Below are positions 1,713-8,363 of a stretch of 36,813 nucleotides of DNA, piece after piece. This stretch comes from Candidatus Aenigmatarchaeota archaeon (lineage in GTDB: Archaea; Aenigmatarchaeota; Aenigmatarchaeia; CG10238-14; SCSR01), in NCBI GenBank assembly GCA_026397385.1, contig JAPLUY010000005.1, positions 1 through 36,813 of the forward strand. The letters run 5' to 3'. Position numbers and translations under genes: made by a program. Numbering within the stretch: the first letter of the stretch is position 1; every line of letters starts with the position of its first letter. A model generated the notes under the pieces. That model searched no databases. It was not told the DNA's origin and saw nothing but the letters and a program-made list of their open reading frames with translations.

Positions 1713-1718
1713 GGGAAA

Positions 1719-1754
1719 AATATATTATTAGAAAAATGCAATAAATTATTAGAA
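1719..1754 (+). repeat. 15-bp direct repeat AATAWATTATTAGAA x2, 21-bp period, upstream of half-TBP
   Basis: aatatattattagaa at 1719-1733 and aataaattattagaa at 1740-1754. Confidence 0.55.
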
Positions 1755-1789
1755 GTCGAAAAAATAAAGGATTTATTTGGTGGCAACAA

Positions 1790-2125
1790 ATGAAACAAAA
1801 AAAATCAGCAATTCAAAATTTTTTAAAAAATAAATCGGAGTGTGAACCTAAAATTGTCAACATCGTTGCAACTGGCAATTTTTCGAAAAGACTTAATATT
1901 AATTCACTAGCAAGAAATCTGGATGTAGAAGAAAAAATATATGACCCTGAGACGTATCCAGCTTTACTTGTAAAAGTAGGAAAAAATAAAAAACACGTGA
2001 CCCTATATTCAAGTGGTAAATACATTATTGTAGGAGTGACGTCTAAAAAAGAATTATTTTTAGTATACAAAGAAATAGTAAAAAAATTAAAGAAAGCCGG
2101 AGCATTAAACTCCAATTTTCAATGA
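1790..2125 (+). CDS. Single-repeat TATA-binding-protein-like protein (half TBP), 111 aa
   Basis: Aligns end-to-end by eye with one repeat of the TBP at 6944-7540: IVNIVATG / LNINSLA / YDPETYPAL / LYSSGK..IVG / KKLKKAGAL. GGTGG lies upstream of the ATG. Confidence 0.85.
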   Translation: MKQKKSAIQNFLKNKSECEPKIVNIVATGNFSKRLNINSLARNLDVEEKIYDPETYPALLVKVGKNKKHVTLYSSGKYIIVGVTSKKELFLVYKEIVKKLKKAGALNSNFQ

Positions 2126-2313
2126 TGATAAATAAAAATTAAATATGTAATAGAAAATTTTCAGAATGAAGGTCGTGAAACGGGTACATTTCAATTGGTG
2201 TATGTGTTTTAATTAAGAACTTTTTTAGAAGTATGAAAAGTTATGCGGGAGGAGGTTATTAATCTCAGAGGGTTAAGATTATCATAAAACATCACTTAAA
2301 GAAGGTATTACAA

Positions 2314-4095
2314 ATGAATGAAGATATCCACGATTCTATTTTTACGAAAAACATACAAAGAGGACTAGATAAAAAAATCATTAAAGTAGAAAATGATGGT
2401 TCTAAAATAATTTATTATTGCAAGAGAAATTACTCAACCTCTTTTAAAAATCCGGAAGAAAGAGTCAGAGCTTCTTATTTTTGTGAGCTTGTTATAGATT
2501 ACGATTATCAGCCAAAAAATATAGATATTGAGGTTACGGTTCCTAGAAGGACGCCGGAAGACAGGGCAGATATTGTTGTTTATGATGAGGACGGTGCAGA
2601 ATATCTTGTTGTTGAATGCAAAAAAGACGGAATAACTGATGCTGAATTTAAACAGGCAATTGAACAAGTTTTTGGAAATGCAAATAGCCTAAGGGCAAAG
2701 TTTGCCTCTGTCATTGCAGGTATTACTAAAACTGCTTTTGATGTTTCAGGGTTCAAACCAAATGAAAGAGAAAAAAATGTTATTTCCGACATTCCTAAAA
2801 AATATGGAAAAACACCAAAATACAAATTCGTCAAAGGATACCCATACAAAGAATTAAAGGAAGTCTCTAGGGAGGAATTAATAAGAGCATTGGAAAAATC
2901 ACATGATACGGTTTGGCAAGGTGGAAAATTAGCGCCTACTACCGCTTTTGACGAAGTTTCTAAATTACTTTTTTGTAAATTAAGAGATGAAAAAATAACA
3001 AAGAAAGGCGAAGCTTACAGTTTTCAGATAGGAACTCATGAATCTTCGGAAGAAATTTTTAAGAGGATAGATGTAATTTATCAGAAAGCAAAGGCTGAAG
3101 ACTCAGAAGTCTTTAAGGAAGATATAAAATTAGAACCAAGAGTAGTTTATAGTGTTGTTGAACATTTGCAGGAATTAGCAATAGGCAAGATAGATTTAGA
3201 TACAAAGGGTGTTGCGTTTGAGCGATTTATGGAAGACTTTTTTAAGGGCAAGATGGGACAATTTTTTACACCGAGAGAAATAATAAACTTCTGCGTTGAA
3301 ATTATGAACCCGGAAAGAAGCGATTTAGTTATAGATCCCGCTTGCGGGTCTGGTGGTTTTTTGCTTAACGCTCTTGATAAAGTTAGAAAATTTTCAGAAT
3401 TGAATTACGATGAAATGGAAGCGTGGGAAAATTGGCATAAGTTTGCTATGAATAATCTTTATGGAATTGAAATAAATGATCAAATTGCAAGAGTTTGTAA
3501 GATGAATATGATAATTCATGATGATGGACACACAAATATTATCAGCACAGATTCATTGAAAAATATTGATGAAATCACAAAAATCCACAAAGGATTTAAG
3601 AAAGCTCAATTTGACATTCTTTTAACAAATCCCCCGTTTGGAGCAATTGTAAAATCTACAGAAAAAGATTATTTGGACAAATATGAATTGGGTAAAGATA
3701 AACAAAACCAAAAAACAGAGATTTTATTCATAGAAAGATGTTTGGATTTCCTAAAGCCAAATGGAAAAATGGCGATTGTTTTACCGGATGGAATTTTAAC
3801 AAATTCCTCTTTACAATATGTTAGAGATTTCTTGATAAAAAAGTCGCAGATTTTGGCAATTGTTAGTTTACCGCAATTTGCGTTTACACATTTCGGAGCG
3901 GGGGTCAAATCCTCTCTTATTTTTGTAAGAAAGAAAAAAGAAGAAGAAACAAACAACTGTCCTATTTTTATGGCGATCGCTGAACACATCGGTTACGATG
4001 CAACGGGAAGGAAAGATGCGATCAACGACTTAAATAAAATTTATGACGAATATAAAAAATTCGAGAAGGATCCAAAGTCTTACAAGGGAGTTTAA
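2314..4095 (+). CDS. hsdM: N6-adenine DNA methyltransferase with N-terminal HsdR_N-type PD-(D/E)XK nuclease domain (fused RM subunit)
   Basis: PEERVR, RADIVVY...VECK, GQFFTPR, DPACGSGGFL, NPPFG, AIVLPDGIL. Confidence 0.9.
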   Translation: MNEDIHDSIFTKNIQRGLDKKIIKVENDGSKIIYYCKRNYSTSFKNPEERVRASYFCELVIDYDYQPKNIDIEVTVPRRTPEDRADIVVYDEDGAEYLVVECKKDGITDAEFKQAIEQVFGNANSLRAKFASVIAGITKTAFDVSGFKPNEREKNVISDIPKKYGKTPKYKFVKGYPYKELKEVSREELIRALEKSHDTVWQGGKLAPTTAFDEVSKLLFCKLRDEKITKKGEAYSFQIGTHESSEEIFKRIDVIYQKAKAEDSEVFKEDIKLEPRVVYSVVEHLQELAIGKIDLDTKGVAFERFMEDFFKGKMGQFFTPREIINFCVEIMNPERSDLVIDPACGSGGFLLNALDKVRKFSELNYDEMEAWENWHKFAMNNLYGIEINDQIARVCKMNMIIHDDGHTNIISTDSLKNIDEITKIHKGFKKAQFDILLTNPPFGAIVKSTEKDYLDKYELGKDKQNQKTEILFIERCLDFLKPNGKMAIVLPDGILTNSSLQYVRDFLIKKSQILAIVSLPQFAFTHFGAGVKSSLIFVRKKKEEETNNCPIFMAIAEHIGYDATGRKDAINDLNKIYDEYKKFEKDPKSYKGV

Positions 4096-4096
4096 G

Positions 4097-5479
4097 ATGG
4101 AATGCTTTACTATCCTTGCTGATGAAATTGATCAAAGGAGATTAGATCCTTACTATCATTCTAAAATTTTTAAAGATAATGAAAAAATAATAAGAAACTC
4201 TAAATTTGAAGTAAAACTGTTGAAGGATGTTTCTAAAAAAATAGTTGACGGTCCTTTCGGTAGTCAACTAAAAGTAGAGGAATATGTTGAAAAAGGAATC
4301 CCACTAATCAGAGTCAAAGATGTTAAAGATCAAGAATTACTTGAAGATAATTTTGTATACATTTCTAAAGAAAAACAAGAACAACTAAAGAGAAGTAAAG
4401 TACTTCCAGGAGATGTACTTTTAACTAAGGCGGGTTCTATTGGAAATGCATGTGTTTTTCCAAAACACTTAAGAGAAGCGAACATAACTTCTCACCTGGC
4501 AAAGATAGAAGTAAACAATGTTGTATACCCAGAATATTTATGTAAATATTTAAACACAAAATATGGCAGATTACAAATATTTAGAGAAGGAAATAAAACT
4601 ACACGACCGGAGCTAAATATTTCCGAAGTTTCCTCCATACTTGTTATAGTCCCTCCATTGGGAAAACAGGAAAAAATAGTTCAATTGATGGATAAATCAT
4701 ATTTTCAAAAGAGGGAAAAAAAACTAGAAGCCCAGAATTTACTTGATTCATTAAATGATTATGTTCTTGGAGAATTGGGAATAGTCCCACTCAAATTAAA
4801 GGATAAAATGATTTATGTTGTTAATTATGATACTGTTAAAAATAATAGATTAGATGCTTACTATTATCAGCCTAAATTTGAAGAAGTGGAAAATATAATT
4901 AAGAACTGTGGAGTTGAGGTTAAAAAGTTAAAAGAATGTTTTGATGGTGAGTTAGTCAAAGGGATATTGCCCACCGATAAAGAAAAAGAAGGTGGTGCAA
5001 AAGTTTTACAGATTAAAAACATTCTTAGAAACGGATTGATAAATACTTCTAAATATGTTACTGCCAAAAATATCTTTGGGTCAGAACATAAGATAAAAAA
5101 GGGAGAAGTGATACTAGTCATTACTGGGGCAACAATTGGTAAAGTTGGTTTATGGTATTCTAATGAAGATTTTTATCTTGGTGGGGATATGGTAAAATTT
5201 TTTACAAGTGACAATGTTGATCCATACTATATTCAAGCCTTCTTATTGTCCCAATTAGGGCAATATCAATTATTGAGACATATTACGGGAGCGACAAACA
5301 AACATTTGTCTCCTGATGATATTGAGAAAATTAAAATTCCTATTCCATCGTTTAGTGTTCAAAACAAAATTGGCGAAGAATTTAAAAAACGAATGCAAAA
5401 AGCTGAACAATTGAAAAATGAAGCTAAAGAAGATTTTGAAAAAACTAAACAAGAAGTTGAAAAGATGATTCTAGGTTAG
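4097..5479 (+). CDS. hsdS: Type I-like restriction-modification specificity subunit with two TRDs
   Basis: Internal duplication RLDPYY/RLDAYY, GPFGSQLK, GDVLLTKAGSIG, PPLGKQEKIV, IPIPSFSVQNKI. The ATG at 4097 sits just after the MTase stop. Confidence 0.88.
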   Translation: MECFTILADEIDQRRLDPYYHSKIFKDNEKIIRNSKFEVKLLKDVSKKIVDGPFGSQLKVEEYVEKGIPLIRVKDVKDQELLEDNFVYISKEKQEQLKRSKVLPGDVLLTKAGSIGNACVFPKHLREANITSHLAKIEVNNVVYPEYLCKYLNTKYGRLQIFREGNKTTRPELNISEVSSILVIVPPLGKQEKIVQLMDKSYFQKREKKLEAQNLLDSLNDYVLGELGIVPLKLKDKMIYVVNYDTVKNNRLDAYYYQPKFEEVENIIKNCGVEVKKLKECFDGELVKGILPTDKEKEGGAKVLQIKNILRNGLINTSKYVTAKNIFGSEHKIKKGEVILVITGATIGKVGLWYSNEDFYLGGDMVKFFTSDNVDPYYIQAFLLSQLGQYQLLRHITGATNKHLSPDDIEKIKIPIPSFSVQNKIGEEFKKRMQKAEQLKNEAKEDFEKTKQEVEKMILG

Positions 5480-5536
5480 AAAAATTGATTATATATATTT
5501 TCAAATATTATTTTCTGGGGATTAACTAAATTAACA

Positions 5537-5833
5537 TTAAATAATTCCTGAAAACCCAAGTTCTTTGAGTTCCTCTAGTCTTTTTTTCTTATCTATGTTA
5601 TTCGTCTGAGTACCTTCTCTCCAAGCGCGTTCTATCTCCTTCGCGGACTTGCCACAGTTCGGACATTTATCTGATAAAAGTTCGTGCCCCTCTGCCTTTT
5701 TGTGCCATCTAGTGTTCTTGGCAATTGCACTTCTGCTGATGCTAGCCGCAGTATGACTAGGCCACCAGAGAATCTCCAGAACCTCATGCTCGCAGAAAGG
5801 ACACATTTCTTTGAGTTTCTGATGTGGATCCAT
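5537..5833 (-). CDS. Small zinc-ribbon hypothetical protein
   Basis: CPFC and CPNC pairs in 98 aa. Confidence 0.7.
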   Translation of the reverse strand: MDPHQKLKEMCPFCEHEVLEILWWPSHTAASISRSAIAKNTRWHKKAEGHELLSDKCPNCGKSAKEIERAWREGTQTNNIDKKKRLEELKELGFSGII

Positions 5834-5958
5834 GATTTAATAATGTCTAGGAGTTAATTAAAAAGAATATTAAAAGTCTGGCTTTGCATATTCTGTCAAC
5901 AAGCCATGGTGACGAGAAATTTTGTCGCACGCGGGTGATTCATTTTTAAAGACGCTAA

Positions 5959-6420
5959 TTAGCCGCTGGCTTCTGAAGCTTCCACTTCCTTTCGTATTTT
6001 TGCTATATGTTGCTTCGCTGTTTCGGGGGCTATAGTTTCTATGTGCAAATCCCCACATTTTGCACGTTCCGTTTCGTCTTCGGTTACAACAACAACGTCT
6101 AGTCCTTCAAGCTGTTTCAGCTGAGCTAGTTTGACGGTGGACTCGATCGGTGTAAGGGAAGCGGAGGGGTTGTCCTCGTGCAGTAGGCCTTTTACACACC
6201 CTATATACCAGTGCTTTTCCGGATAAGCCGCAAAAAGACTGTTCAGCACGGACGACGTAACGCAAAAGTTAAGTTCCATCTTGTGGCATTTGCAATCCAT
6301 CACTTCTTTGAGCATGGCTTTAGATGGTGTTTCCACGTAATGCTTCTCTATGGATTTGTTAAGCGCGGAAAACCCGAAAATGAACACTTGAAAATCGTCT
6401 CGTACGTGCTCTTCAAACAT
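5959..6420 (-). CDS. Hypothetical protein, possibly degenerate PIN-domain
   Basis: The C-terminal VVVVTED...IETIAPE pattern resembles the PIN end. The first catalytic Asp position reads FIFGFSAL. GAGGGG lies upstream. Confidence 0.5.
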   Translation of the reverse strand: MFEEHVRDDFQVFIFGFSALNKSIEKHYVETPSKAMLKEVMDCKCHKMELNFCVTSSVLNSLFAAYPEKHWYIGCVKGLLHEDNPSASLTPIESTVKLAQLKQLEGLDVVVVTEDETERAKCGDLHIETIAPETAKQHIAKIRKEVEASEASG

Positions 6421-6475
6421 ATGTGCCCCTCAGTGCTAAAAGTAAGTCCGTTCAGAACTTGCTTTTTTAAGCAGT

Positions 6476-6739
6476 TTAATCTTCGGCAACCGCAAAGATG
6501 TCAGGTGTTTGAGTAACGTTTGCGGCTTTAATTATCCTAAGAGGCGAGTGCATCGTAATCCTGACAGAAATGATGTCTTGCGGTTGTGCCGAATCTATGA
6601 TTTCCCGCGCAGGCCCCTCGACGACGAACCCGTATTTTTTGACGGTAGTCCTGATGGTATCGGCGGGCAGGTATTTCACGGCTTCAAATTCTTCTTTGTT
6701 TGAGTTCATTTCTATCATCTTCATACTAGCCTCTGGCAA
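6476..6739 (-). CDS. Small hypothetical protein (start uncertain)
   Basis: 87-aa ORF co-oriented with the two downstream genes, with a TTTAAA box upstream. Confidence 0.45.
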   Translation of the reverse strand: MPEASMKMIEMNSNKEEFEAVKYLPADTIRTTVKKYGFVVEGPAREIIDSAQPQDIISVRITMHSPLRIIKAANVTQTPDIFAVAED

Positions 6740-6943: not shown

Positions 6944-7540
6944 CTAAGCCTTCGTCGCGGGCTTCGGCTTGATTATCGCGCCTATTTCCTTGAGCTTCTT
7001 AGAGACGCGCGCGACTGCGATTCCGATGTCCTTCACGTTGCGTGCGCCTGCGCAGATGACCTTGCCGCTGCCGAACAGCAGGAACGCGACCTTCGGGTCC
7101 TTCATGCGGTAGACGAGGCCAGGGAACTGCTCGGGCTCGTACTCTGAGTTGTCCAGGTTGAACGCGATCTTGTCGAGGTCCAGCGTACCATCGAGCTTGG
7201 CCGAGGCCACGATGTTCTCGACCTGCACCTTATAGTCCTTGGGCAGCTTCACGCCCGACTTGGTGATGAGTTCGGCCACGCGCTCGAAGACGAGCTTGAC
7301 GTCGGATATGTTGCGGCAGCCCGTGCAGACGACCTTCCCGCTGCCGAAGATCAAGGCAGCGGCCTTCGGCTCCTTCATGCGGTAGACCACGCCCGGAAAA
7401 CGCTCCGGCTCGTACTCCATCCCGCCCGTCTTTACCAGCCTTTCCAGCTGTATGCGTACGCCAAACGTGGCGGTAGCGACCGTGTTCTCCACGTGAATCC
7501 CGAACTCCTTAGAGGCTGTCAATAGAAAACGACCTAGCAT
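6944..7540 (-). CDS. tbp: TATA-box-binding protein (two repeats); true start possibly TTG at 7522
   Basis: Two repeats: VENTVAT...YEPERFPGVVYR...IFGSGKVVCTG and VENIVAS...YEPEQFPGLVYR...LFGSGKVICAG. Confidence 0.97.
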   Translation of the reverse strand: MLGRFLLTASKEFGIHVENTVATATFGVRIQLERLVKTGGMEYEPERFPGVVYRMKEPKAAALIFGSGKVVCTGCRNISDVKLVFERVAELITKSGVKLPKDYKVQVENIVASAKLDGTLDLDKIAFNLDNSEYEPEQFPGLVYRMKDPKVAFLLFGSGKVICAGARNVKDIGIAVARVSKKLKEIGAIIKPKPATKA

Positions 7541-7577
7541 AAATTAGTCATGCACCCACATATACTCGATATATGGC

Positions 7578-7680
7578 GCCCTGGCAGGCCCGGACGGGCG
7601 TCGCCCGAACCACGGGAGGTGGTGGGAAGGGCAGATATCCTTCCGGGGTGCAACGGAATCGTATGGAAGCATTGCCGGGA
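7578..7680 (+). other. GC-rich, putatively structured intergenic element (copy A)
   Basis: Closing stem cctggca 7580-7586 / tgccggg 7673-7679; hairpins gccc-ggac-gggc, accac-gggag-gtggt and ggaagg...ccttcc. Similar to the minus strand of 9668-9728. Confidence 0.4.
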
Positions 7681-7691
7681 TCAAAACTTAA

Positions 7692-7715
7692 GTATTATAT
7701 AGACGTATATAATAC
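7692..7715. promoter_or_regulatory. Perfect inverted repeat operator next to TATA of TA-like operon
   Basis: GTATTATATA-gacg-TATATAATAC, between the aaaacttaagta BRE/TATA-like box and the ATG at 7723. Confidence 0.75.
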
Positions 7716-7722
7716 AGATAAC

Positions 7723-8022
7723 ATGCCCCAGAAACGTAAGACCGAAGCCTCGCAGGCCAGGCGCGCGAACAGCATCCTGCACTACCCGAGGCTGGACACG
7801 GTCATGATGATCGAGGATGCAATACGCGACGCGAAGGAATACCCTTCCAAGCGCCAGCTCTGGCTGTCGCTGAAGAGGAAGGTGATGTACCAGACGTTCC
7901 TCGTGGTGCTCGACTACCTCGAAAAATCGAACAAGATACTGCTGAACAGGGGCAAGATCATCTGGATATGGGACCCGGAAGGTGCTAAAAAATACCTGAA
8001 AGACGGGTTGATAGTCAGATGA
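7723..8022 (+). CDS. Winged-helix DNA-binding protein, putative antitoxin (99 aa)
   Basis: Helix-turn-helix-wing pattern (SKRQLWLSL...YQTFLVVLDYLEKSNKILLNRGKIIW). Start reassigned to 7723, after the promoter. ATGA overlap with the next gene. Confidence 0.7.
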   Translation: MPQKRKTEASQARRANSILHYPRLDTVMMIEDAIRDAKEYPSKRQLWLSLKRKVMYQTFLVVLDYLEKSNKILLNRGKIIWIWDPEGAKKYLKDGLIVR

Positions 8023-8363
8023 GCAACGGCAGCACCGGAACGAGAAGGGTTGTCGTCACATTCGCCGACGACGGCCTTCGCGAGTCATACGAGAGGCTAA
8101 AGAAAGAGGACGACAAGCTGTACAAGGCGATAACGCGCGTGCTCGACTCGCTGAGAAGCAACCCCGCTTTCGGCGTCTCGATAGCGAAGAACCTGATACC
8201 GGCTTACTACGTAAGGAGATATGGCGTGAACAACCTCCACAAATGCAACCTGCCGGGCGGATGGAGGCTTTTGTATTTCGTGAAAGGCACGCAAGCGGAG
8301 GTCGTTTCCATCGTGCTCGAATGGCTCACTCACAAAAAGTACGAAAGAAGGTTCGGTTACTGA
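8019..8363 (+). CDS. RelE/ParE-superfamily-like toxin
   Basis: Basic 114 aa; L..NPAFG, LHKCNLPGGWRLLYFV, LEWLTHKKYE. Confidence 0.65.
   Translation: MSNGSTGTRRVVVTFADDGLRESYERLKKEDDKLYKAITRVLDSLRSNPAFGVSIAKNLIPAYYVRRYGVNNLHKCNLPGGWRLLYFVKGTQAEVVSIVLEWLTHKKYERRFGY

Follow-up and report, generated by a model that had tools for sequence, protein, structure and literature searches.

Why would an archaeal genome that encodes the ordinary, two-repeat TATA-binding protein (TBP) also carry a gene for what amounts to one half of it, and why would that gene stand at the head of a cluster of restriction-modification (RM) genes? The question is raised by a stretch of 36,813 nt from a Candidatus Aenigmatarchaeota archaeon (GenBank assembly GCA_026397385.1, contig JAPLUY010000005.1, positions 1 to 36,813 of the forward strand; the whole of this stretch is referred to as “the window”), near the beginning of which a 111-aa protein consisting of a single TBP repeat, hereafter half-TBP, is encoded ahead of a two-gene RM system. 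The answer that emerges is that this half-TBP belongs to a family of its own, whose genes recur beside methylase-based systems of many kinds, and that the family points to an unrecognized DNA-binding partner or regulator of archaeal immunity.

A TBP repeat encoded on its own

The original prediction, made by a model from the sequence, had described an intact open reading frame (ORF) of 111 aa, with a GGTGG resembling a ribosome-binding site, that covers exactly one TBP repeat, and this description was confirmed (coordinates are given in Table 1). The protein matches the Pfam TBP family (PF00352) in a single stretch at 62.8 bits (cut-off 22.9; E 2.8e-17), its residues 20-102 aligning with profile positions 2-84 of 85 and residues 1-19 forming a Lys-rich N-terminal extension, so that the two tandem repeats found in one chain of canonical TBP are lacking. 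The motifs named in the prediction (NIVAT, TYPAL and LYSSGK) are all present, and Y56 and Y73 align, in a comparison with solved archaeal TBPs and the host TBP, with the Phe residues of “EQFPG” and “LIF/LLF”, which we take to be the DNA-intercalating Phe residues of TBP; the paired Phe of the DNA-facing sheet of canonical TBP is thus absent, with Tyr at both aligned positions, as had been claimed.

That the ORF is a decayed two-repeat gene or a fragment of the host tbp was excluded by its identity to the host TBP, which is as low as had been proposed for that opposite-strand gene (34% to repeat 2 and 26% to repeat 1), together with a search of the complete assembly (675 kb, 59 contigs, 78% complete) for PF00352 in all six frames. 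This search, which gave five matches, that at 1847-2095 being the only one in the neighborhood of the half-TBP gene, found no decayed second repeat. The intergenic gaps flanking the half-TBP gene (77 and 188 bp) are, moreover, shorter than the approximately 255 bp that a TBP repeat needs, and therefore leave no room for a hidden one.

Neither are the closest homologues two-repeat proteins. Among 5.8 billion proteins searched, 34 matches other than the protein itself were obtained, 33 of which are single-repeat proteins of 90-112 aa that are 49-70% identical over the repeat, the remaining one (P0035) being a two-repeat protein of 171 aa at 33% identity. Fourteen residues are invariant in the family (P20, N24, V26, A27, Y56, L59, K62, G76, K77, Y78, I79, I80, G82 and L100), all of them carried by the window ORF, and Y51, P53, E54, P57, A58, H69, Y73 and N75 are conserved in at least 90% of the sequences. 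Common to the family and the solved TBPs are “NIVA(T/S)” of the first strand (S1), the “EPE” stirrup, “GK” and the last Gly, while “NGKYII” is a signature specific to the half-TBP family; in TBP, the acidic “EPE” stirrup contacts TFB/TFIIB. When 133 genomes of the class of Methanofastidiosum were scanned with the family profile, 15 of them had frames of 103-104 aa scoring 114-121 bits, as opposed to no more than 62 bits for the canonical TBP repeats in the same scan, which sets the family clearly apart from canonical TBP.

The family is under strong purifying selection: the ratio of nonsynonymous to synonymous substitution rates (dN/dS; pairwise Nei-Gojobori estimates, pairs with 0.05<dS<1.5) has a median of 0.077 over 205 pairs, only two of which exceed 0.5. 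None of the three outcomes by which the original prediction was to be refuted (two-repeat closest homologues, a decayed second repeat and a lack of purifying selection) was observed. Two members were left out of this calculation, one cut by a contig end (L044) and one cut to 64 aa by a frame break (L054:322-516); the latter, which adjoins an N6/N4 methylase gene, is likely a pseudogene or a sequencing error.

Fused forms of the family were not found at E<=1e-8 among proteins of 196-2000 aa, a search that is weak evidence, and in a profile search of 1.84 billion representatives every listed match longer than 130 aa had at least two TBP stretches, these matches looking like ordinary or duplicated TBPs; the 4791 matches at E<=0.001 of the latter search do not separate the family from TBPs and thus give no family size. 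A viral origin was rejected, as no family member was met in either a pattern scan of IMG/VR (no relatives, the patterns being narrow) or a phage collection, where only three records, all of them halovirus TBPs at about 31% identity, were retrieved. Of the 76 records retrieved from a plasmid collection, none reached 60% identity, and the 23 listed are haloarchaeal (31-38%) and mostly annotated as TBP. Two haloarchaeal tailed viruses (MZ334505.1 and MZ334513.1) carry genes annotated as TBP whose products share about 31% identity with the half-TBP, and the ESM Atlas holds several clusters of TBP-domain proteins of 104-123 aa, one of which (104-aa proteins) is labeled 71% viral with the phylum known for seven members only. 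In a contest for promoters, such TBP-family proteins encoded by viruses might form the opposing side.

AlphaFold models the half-TBP with a mean pLDDT of 85.3 and a pTM of 0.71, residues 1-19 being poorly defined, and the elements of the model (E25-30, H37-43, E48-52, E56-63, E68-73, E77-83 and H86-102) follow the order S1-H1-S2-S5-H2, i.e., the strand-helix-four strands-helix succession of one TBP repeat. All 44 Foldseek matches in the PDB at E<=1e-3 are TBPs, with root-mean-square deviations of 1.3-1.9 Å over 79-87 columns to either TBP repeat in most of the matches listed, and the sequence relatives of the half-TBP in the PDB are two-repeat TBPs only.

Modeling of a homodimer, one of the checks proposed with the original prediction, supported a TBP-like pair, the predicted ipSAE being 0.74 as against 0.01 for the best control (20 of 30 proteins whose solved structure is a pair of one chain came up to this ipSAE mark, compared with 1 of 23 whose solved structure is a single chain). 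Three runs agreed in at least 97% of the contacts, with a partner pLDDT of at least 84, and placed residues 17-32 of both copies along with residues 78, 80, 86, 89-90 and 93 in the interface, so that S1 is predicted to pair against S1', much as the two repeats of TBP pair through their S1 strands. The half-TBP is, judging by these models, probably a TBP-like homodimer, in which the two copies would pair by their first beta-strands to give a symmetric ten-stranded saddle like that of TBP.

Restriction-modification and BREX genes as neighbors

What the half-TBP has to do with RM genes was approached through its neighbors in 58 loci (17 usable ones from one-genome-per-species contigs, 40 from metagenome contigs and the window), which reduce to 52 distinct loci at 98% DNA identity; neighboring ORFs were grouped by BLAST and representatives checked with Pfam, and three loci had been dropped before counting (L018, with a 217-aa frame at 30% identity on a GC-rich contig, and L064 and L065, which encode two-repeat TBPs). 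The outcome of this tabulation, which the original prediction had put forward as a check, was strongly positive across many lineages and systems. An RM or BREX (bacteriophage exclusion) core gene is the nearest gene on one side in 42 of the 58 loci (36 of the 52 distinct ones) and lies within four genes in 47 (41 distinct), no such gene being found in 11 (11 distinct), in five of which the contig breaks off at 0-914 bp from the half-TBP. The genome-only subset behaves likewise (adjacent in 12 of 17 and within three genes in 13 of 17), and when the half-TBPs are clustered at 75% identity, 17 of the 20 clusters include one or more loci in which an RM gene adjoins the half-TBP.

The linkage fades with distance: matches to hidden Markov models (HMMs) of the methylase, specificity and restriction subunits (M, S and R) were found for 34/93 genes at gene distance 1, 17/73 at 2, 15/57 at 3, 3/48 at 4 and 1/182 at 6 or more, with the reservation, to be set on the opposite side of the scales, that these HMMs were built from the neighbors themselves and are informative only in so far as they fall silent farther away. 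In the class scan, HsdM lies within 1.5 kb at 12 of 15 half-TBP loci, while an M, S or R match was found at 1 of 23 canonical-TBP control loci, some of which overlap each other, and in a Methanofastidiosum genome of 1.4 Mb the only strong N6_Mtase match (240 bits) sits 5 bp from the half-TBP gene.

Among the linked systems, nine kinds or more can be told apart: Type I hsdR-M-S (the Methanofastidiosum group, L046, L047, L049, L050 and L001), a nuclease-methylase fusion with HsdS (the window and L045), a Type II methylase accompanied by an R.PabI-family nuclease (L039, L043, L048 and some shorter contigs), M.Eco57I-type methylases (L035 and L037), Eco57I-like Type IIG enzymes together with a C5 methylase (L028 and L040), a PLD-helicase with an Eco57I/MmeI-type methylase (L038), Type III Res and Mod (L003), small N6/N4 methylases (L004 and L054) and BrxB-BrxC-BrxL (L005, with a fragment in L052). 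The BREX-type cluster of L005 (5956-16303) comprises BrxB, BrxC and BrxL, with no PglX or PglZ gene between BrxC and BrxL, and AbiEi-like and RadC-like genes lie on the other side of its half-TBP. In being encoded within or beside so many kinds of RM operon, the half-TBP resembles the controller (C) proteins of RM systems.

Gene orders differ as well. The window has the half-TBP ahead of the RM gene and the S gene; elsewhere the orders R > x > S > half-TBP > M and M > x > S > half-TBP occur, and in further loci the half-TBP gene converges on hsdM, Res or brxL with 5-55 bp in between. In L024-27, L036, L039, L043, L046, L047, L049 and L050, the half-TBP gene overlaps hsdS, hsdM or a gene of an EVE domain, a reader of modified bases, at start and stop codons or is parted from it by no more than a few nt. 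The EVE gene (135-150 aa) stands directly upstream of the half-TBP, overlapping or abutting it, in 8 of the 52 distinct loci (L024-L027, L036, L039, L041 and L043), in seven of which the order is EVE > half-TBP > M with overlapping or near-abutting codons, the contig of the eighth, L041, ending 115 bp past the half-TBP. A divergent gene for an HxlR-type winged-helix protein precedes this cassette in the contigs reaching far enough upstream (L036, L039, L041 and L043), and a convergent R.PabI-family nuclease gene follows downstream in L039 and L043, giving a compact cassette of four to five genes.

Does the half-TBP follow one enzyme or a class of systems? Distances between half-TBPs correlate only weakly with those between the adjacent methylases (r 0.38, reached by 2 of 2000 permutations, with the Methanofastidiosum group collapsed); L034 and L035, for instance, are at a half-TBP distance of 0.25 and an adjacent-methylase distance of 0.81, and at least seven N6_Mtase lineages, counted from the distance matrix, lie beside half-TBPs. 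As close half-TBPs are found beside unrelated methylases, the linkage must have been made many times, and with a class of system as opposed to one enzyme.

The simplest objection to all of this would be that the half-TBP is a passenger with no functional tie, which merely ends up at the integration hot spots or on the mobile islands that RM genes use too, or of which the window copy is decaying. Defense genes do tend to cluster, the Methanofastidiosum half-TBP keeps its place whether the Type I operon is present (18 loci) or absent (four loci) between it and an EamA transporter gene (the half-TBP adjoins the EamA gene in L010, L013, L014 and L058), and integrase genes adjoin the half-TBP in L032 and L037. 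A passenger would, however, hardly be expected to recur with at least nine kinds of systems in varied gene orders and with translational coupling, to be linked in 17 of 20 clusters while RM matches are so rare at six genes or more, or to be under strong purifying selection as a family, the window ORF itself being intact with 14 of 14 invariant residues, and this explanation is accordingly considered very improbable. The linkage of half-TBP to RM genes is, in our judgment, very probably real and functional in some way. As for the integrase genes, they are of the archaeal phage type and lie directly upstream of the half-TBP (L032:6487-7299 and L037:3-695), a position that fits carriage on integrating elements.

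Possible roles and described relatives

To our knowledge, almost nothing has been described of how archaeal RM and BREX systems are regulated, and we know of no archaeal counterpart of the bacterial controller proteins. The role placed first here, if tentatively, is that of a homodimeric mini-TBP that would bind TATA-like or AT-rich DNA and thereby control transcription of the linked RM system, acting through the DNA and not through contact with one particular enzyme. It would, in other words, be an archaeal counterpart of RM controller (C) proteins or BrxR-type regulators, or else a portable TBP for the promoters of the island, its “EPE” stirrup still being offered to TFB, and in some loci it might act together with the neighboring EVE reader reporting the methylation state. 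Action through DNA is favored because the swapping of partners argues against a fixed protein-protein fit, and because the DNA-facing S1 residues, aromatics at both wedge positions and the acidic stirrup have all been kept; the recurrence of the EVE partner suggests that the methylation state may be read as an input. This is close to what the original prediction had proposed, i.e., a homodimeric TATA- or AT-binding factor controlling RM expression, of which the tie to RM is borne out by the comparative neighbor data and a TBP-like homodimer is favored by the modeling, whereas another of its suggestions, a decoy for viral anti-TBP proteins, drew no support from any analysis; its third suggestion was a competitor of host TBP.

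Quite a few observations sit uneasily with such a regulator, in addition to the self-built HMMs mentioned above. The place of the half-TBP varies (operon head, inside, tail, or convergent with a 5-bp gap), which is unusual for a dedicated operon regulator, and some loci already have the HxlR-type winged-helix gene. Six loci with readable flanks (L002/L042, L010, L013, L014 and L058) have no RM gene nearby, and half-TBP can therefore persist without an adjacent system. Inspection of upstream regions by eye revealed no operator-like motif beyond ordinary TATA boxes, and the extended promoter motif of the Methanofastidiosum half-TBP (16 nt) was not found upstream of hsdR in L007, where it matched only its own promoter. 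Tyr stands at both Phe wedge positions, so that TBP-like kinking of DNA is not assured; the homodimer score may partly reflect the model's memory of the two-repeat structure of TBP; and purifying selection is a family-level result, dS of the window copy being saturated (five of the six closest pairs are not computable, and the sixth stands at 1.46).

Some of the same observations would suit an accessory defense effector or sensor instead of a regulator, a role that we regard as unlikely. The effector would resemble PrrC, which is held by EcoprrI: idle while the RM system works, it would block TATA boxes and stop transcription once a virus disables restriction. The sensor would use its DNA-binding saddle to trap the viral DNA-mimic anti-restriction proteins that hit Type I RM and BREX, Ocr-type mimics acting on both. 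Half-TBPs do occur inside Type I operons beside a PIN_12 protein (L049) or unknown proteins of 209-267 aa (L045 and L046), genes for HEPN, AbiEi, RadC and PD-(D/E)XK proteins are close by, and the many types of linked systems, the variable position, convergent ones included, and the conserved DNA-facing residues all agree with it. A guard held by contact should, however, co-evolve with its RM partner, yet near-identical half-TBPs adjoin unrelated methylases; furthermore, the half-TBP has no toxin-like domain and no match to a PADLOC model (no matching families in PADLOC-DB 2.0), and it persists without RM genes in the six loci just named.

The overlaps with hsdS and hsdM, suggestive of co-production, and the recurrent EVE pairing could also be read as marks of a DNA-binding helper of the enzymes themselves and not of their transcription, in which case the dimer, by bending DNA or binding certain forms of it, would either mark or block DNA so that translocating or sliding enzymes (Type I, Type III and BREX) stall and cut, or steer methylation. 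Most of the linked systems indeed have ATP-driven translocases or helicases (HsdR, Res, PLD-helicase and BrxC/BrxL), but the system of the window and the Type II cassettes (a methylase with an R.PabI- or XamI-family nuclease) do without a translocase, and the conserved acidic stirrup, given the role we take it to have in TBP, fits a part in transcription better, which makes such a helper decidedly unlikely. Another version of it would bind RNA-DNA hybrids as does the TBP-like domain of RNase HIII, hybrid-binding TBP-like domains being described in the available part of PMC3710099.

Returning to the mini-TBP acting on promoters, it is of interest that some two-repeat TBP paralogues (174-184 aa in L102, L108, L064 and L065) also lie beside RM genes. 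A Thermococcales-like genome (G070) has a second TBP paralogue of 176 aa (L102:8850-9380, minus strand), which accounts for the one RM match among the 23 control loci: it stands convergently, 15 bp after an hsdR-hsdM-hsdS operon, with an EVE-domain gene on its other side, and its first repeat has Tyr at both positions and “SGKYII”, the second repeat being canonical. An orthologue in G128 (L108:9782-10306, minus strand), 69% identical to it, likewise has an adjoining EVE gene, with a DUF1156 methyltransferase-like gene two ORFs away on the opposite side. Further examples are a 184-aa TBP right after hsdM-S-R (L064:5680-6234), whose first repeat reaches 64.9 bits with the family HMM, and a TBP of 183 aa flanked by a XamI-family nuclease and an N6 methylase (L065:203-754). 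The half-TBP marks (Tyr for Phe twice and “GKYI”) are found in the first repeat of L102, L064 and P0035, and P0035 (171 aa) looks like a protein of the same type.

In a bolder, and doubtful, version of the mini-TBP, a portable, ancestor-like homodimer would serve as a mobile switch of transcription: it would bind TATA-like DNA, engage TFB on either side and, with the EVE protein where there is one, switch restriction on only after host methylation, the two-repeat RM-linked paralogues being its fused descendants or ancestors. If true, archaea would have turned part of their basal transcription machinery into the first known equivalent of a controller protein. More generally, a TBP-derived protein that moves along with so many unrelated systems based on methylases would add a new player that lends itself to easy testing, and its repeated pairing with EVE ties the reading of DNA modification to a promoter-binding fold. 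Half-TBPs have practical merits as well, being small, soluble and encoded in compact cassettes of three or four genes. TBP is thought to derive from a homodimer of a single domain, and a natural, selected and probably homodimeric half-TBP with DNA-facing and stirrup residues would permit direct tests of what the TBP ancestor was able to do.

How does this family relate to what has been described? Canonical archaeal TBP (PF00352; e.g., 1PCZ, 1MP9, 2Z8U and 1AIS) shares its domain and fold with the half-TBP but has two repeats, to which, in the host TBP, the one repeat of the half-TBP bears the low identity given above; it is a housekeeping gene product with a Phe pair, whereas the half-TBP is found in RM loci and has a Tyr pair and “NGKYII”. 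Canonical TBP recruits TFB and RNA polymerase at the TATA box, a role at which the conserved S1 residues and stirrup of the half-TBP might hint indirectly. The controller proteins of Type II RM systems, like the BrxR/CapW-type regulators of BREX and other systems, have helix-turn-helix (HTH) or WYL domains and operators upstream of their own genes; as they are, the half-TBP is small, probably dimeric according to the models, probably DNA-binding and swapped among unrelated RM or defense systems, but it differs in having a TBP fold instead of a helix-turn-helix, in that no operator was found, and in often being encoded in the middle or at the tail of an operon.

Single TBP domains in archaea have been reported before. 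Brindefalk et al. (2013) listed monopartite TBP-domain proteins of Thermococcales (82-136 aa; Table 3 of PMC3597702), of unknown function and reported to be only remotely similar to TBP, the local alignments covering 9-73 residues; as far as the available part of that paper goes, they share with the half-TBP a stand-alone, single TBP domain without an adjacent second repeat, but the half-TBP, unlike them, aligns over the whole repeat. The word “restriction” does not occur in the paper, and the same part of it gives neither a function nor an RM context. When applied to five complete genomes of the class of Thermococcales with 191-aa TBPs, the family profile found two-repeat proteins only, with no short frame at E<=1, in all five, although carriage of the Table 3 genes by these genomes is uncertain. 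Halobacterial TbpA also has a single TBP domain but, by its published description, is very similar to, and clusters with, full-length TBPs of the same species (PMC3597702, available part), whereas the half-TBP family is a high-scoring group of its own.

TBP-family proteins have also been placed within prokaryotic conflict gene clusters, the bacterial TOTE (TPR, OB, TBP, Effector) and TALON systems including TBP components (PMC12458937, available part). By that description they are bacterial and have TPR-cold-shock/OB partners, effectors and YprA helicases, as opposed to the archaeal, methylase-centered half-TBP loci, and TPR, OB/CSD and YprA domains were absent from the subset of half-TBP neighbors run through Pfam. 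RNase HIII and RNase LS/RnlA-type defense nucleases have single TBP-like N-terminal domains for nucleic-acid binding, in RnlA within defense (PMC3710099, available part), but these are fused to enzymes and far more diverged, and no such chain is among the 44 fold matches at E<=1e-3. The half-TBP lacks a defining feature of each of the C-protein, TOTE and canonical TBP families and so belongs to none of the three. That it is an “undescribed” system, as originally claimed, stands in part only: single TBP-domain archaeal proteins and TBP-containing conflict systems have been published, while no report of a half-TBP-RM linkage was found in the literature on TBP with RM or defense in archaea, supplements to which could hold a mention. 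“TBP” and “TATA” are absent from PMC4158269 and PMC12988326, and the mention of TBP in PMC7641849 concerns DUF1831 only.

The AT-rich island and its surroundings

The half-TBP arrived in this GC-rich genome on an AT-rich RM island (Table 1). The island (approximately 3.8 kb, GC about 0.30) consists of the half-TBP followed by the two-gene RM system, of which the first gene product unites an N-terminal HSDR_N_2 (PD-(D/E)XK-type) nuclease domain with an N6-adenine DNA methylase and is the R-M subunit, matching MTase_I of PADLOC (PDLC03030) at E 2.3e-143, and the second is an HsdS (Specificity_I of PADLOC, E 9e-67) whose gene overlaps the methylase gene by 53 nt. The same nuclease-methylase architecture adjoins the half-TBP of L045. 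The host TBP gene lies outside the island, and a second full TBP is encoded on contig C9 of the same assembly. The nearest relatives of the assembly's TBP that bear a name are Aenigmatarchaeota MAGs (two among the 120 matches listed), which tentatively suggests a DPANN-type host.

Table 1. Positions of the half-TBP gene, the island and the host TBP gene in the window.
Feature	Positions	Strand	Properties
AT-rich island	1713-5500		GC 0.27-0.35 vs. approximately 0.62 elsewhere; directly after the stop of a PD-(D/E)XK nuclease gene
Two AT-rich direct repeats of 15 nt	1719-1733, 1740-1754	+	93% alike; start-to-start 21 nt
GGTGG, Shine-Dalgarno-like	1779-1783	+	6 nt 5' of the half-TBP ATG; read from the sequence
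Half-TBP gene	1790-2125	+	111 aa; ATG start; intact ORF; one TBP repeat
Nuclease-methylase fusion gene	2314-4095	+	593 aa; Pfam HSDR_N_2 (E 2.3e-16) and N6_Mtase (E 3.6e-47)
HsdS-type specificity subunit gene	4043-5479	+	478 aa; two target-recognition domains; Methylase_S in two stretches (E 6e-22)
Host two-repeat TBP gene	6944-7540	-	198 aa; Pfam TBP in two stretches (E 6.7e-59); outside the island

An assembly chimera was excluded by the GC-rich sequence on both sides and by a contig of 584 nt that the same study obtained from another sample of freshwater sediment. This contig spans 1234-1817 with no differences and thereby joins the GC-rich nuclease gene to the beginning of the half-TBP gene across the left GC/AT junction; for these two reasons, the island is a real insertion. 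A “joint” in X1 skipping 4041-5433 was disregarded, its sides being only 21 nt. The borders of the island show no flanking att-like repeats, and there is no tRNA gene in the window. The pair of 15-nt repeats, found by a repeat search of the window about 36-71 nt ahead of the half-TBP ATG, might represent candidate TATA-like promoter or operator elements; comparative support for them was not found, as the upstream contexts of the relatives differ.

Upstream of the island, a gene looks split into three plus-strand ORFs: 3-692 and 695-1255 are parted by a single stop, and 1113-1712, which has a PD-(D/E)XK/Cas4-like nuclease domain, overlaps in another frame. The whole (3-1712) could be either a frameshifted helicase-nuclease gene or the result of a sequencing error. 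Between the island and the host tbp, three minus-strand ORFs of 98, 153 and 87 aa (5537-6739; GC 0.40-0.47), none of which matched a Pfam family, may belong to an older insertion, and the 98-aa one, with two Cys pairs, may be a candidate zinc ribbon. Just past the host tbp, two plus-strand ORFs of 149 and 114 aa (7573-8022 and 8019-8363) overlap by 4 nt in a layout resembling that of toxin-antitoxin pairs.

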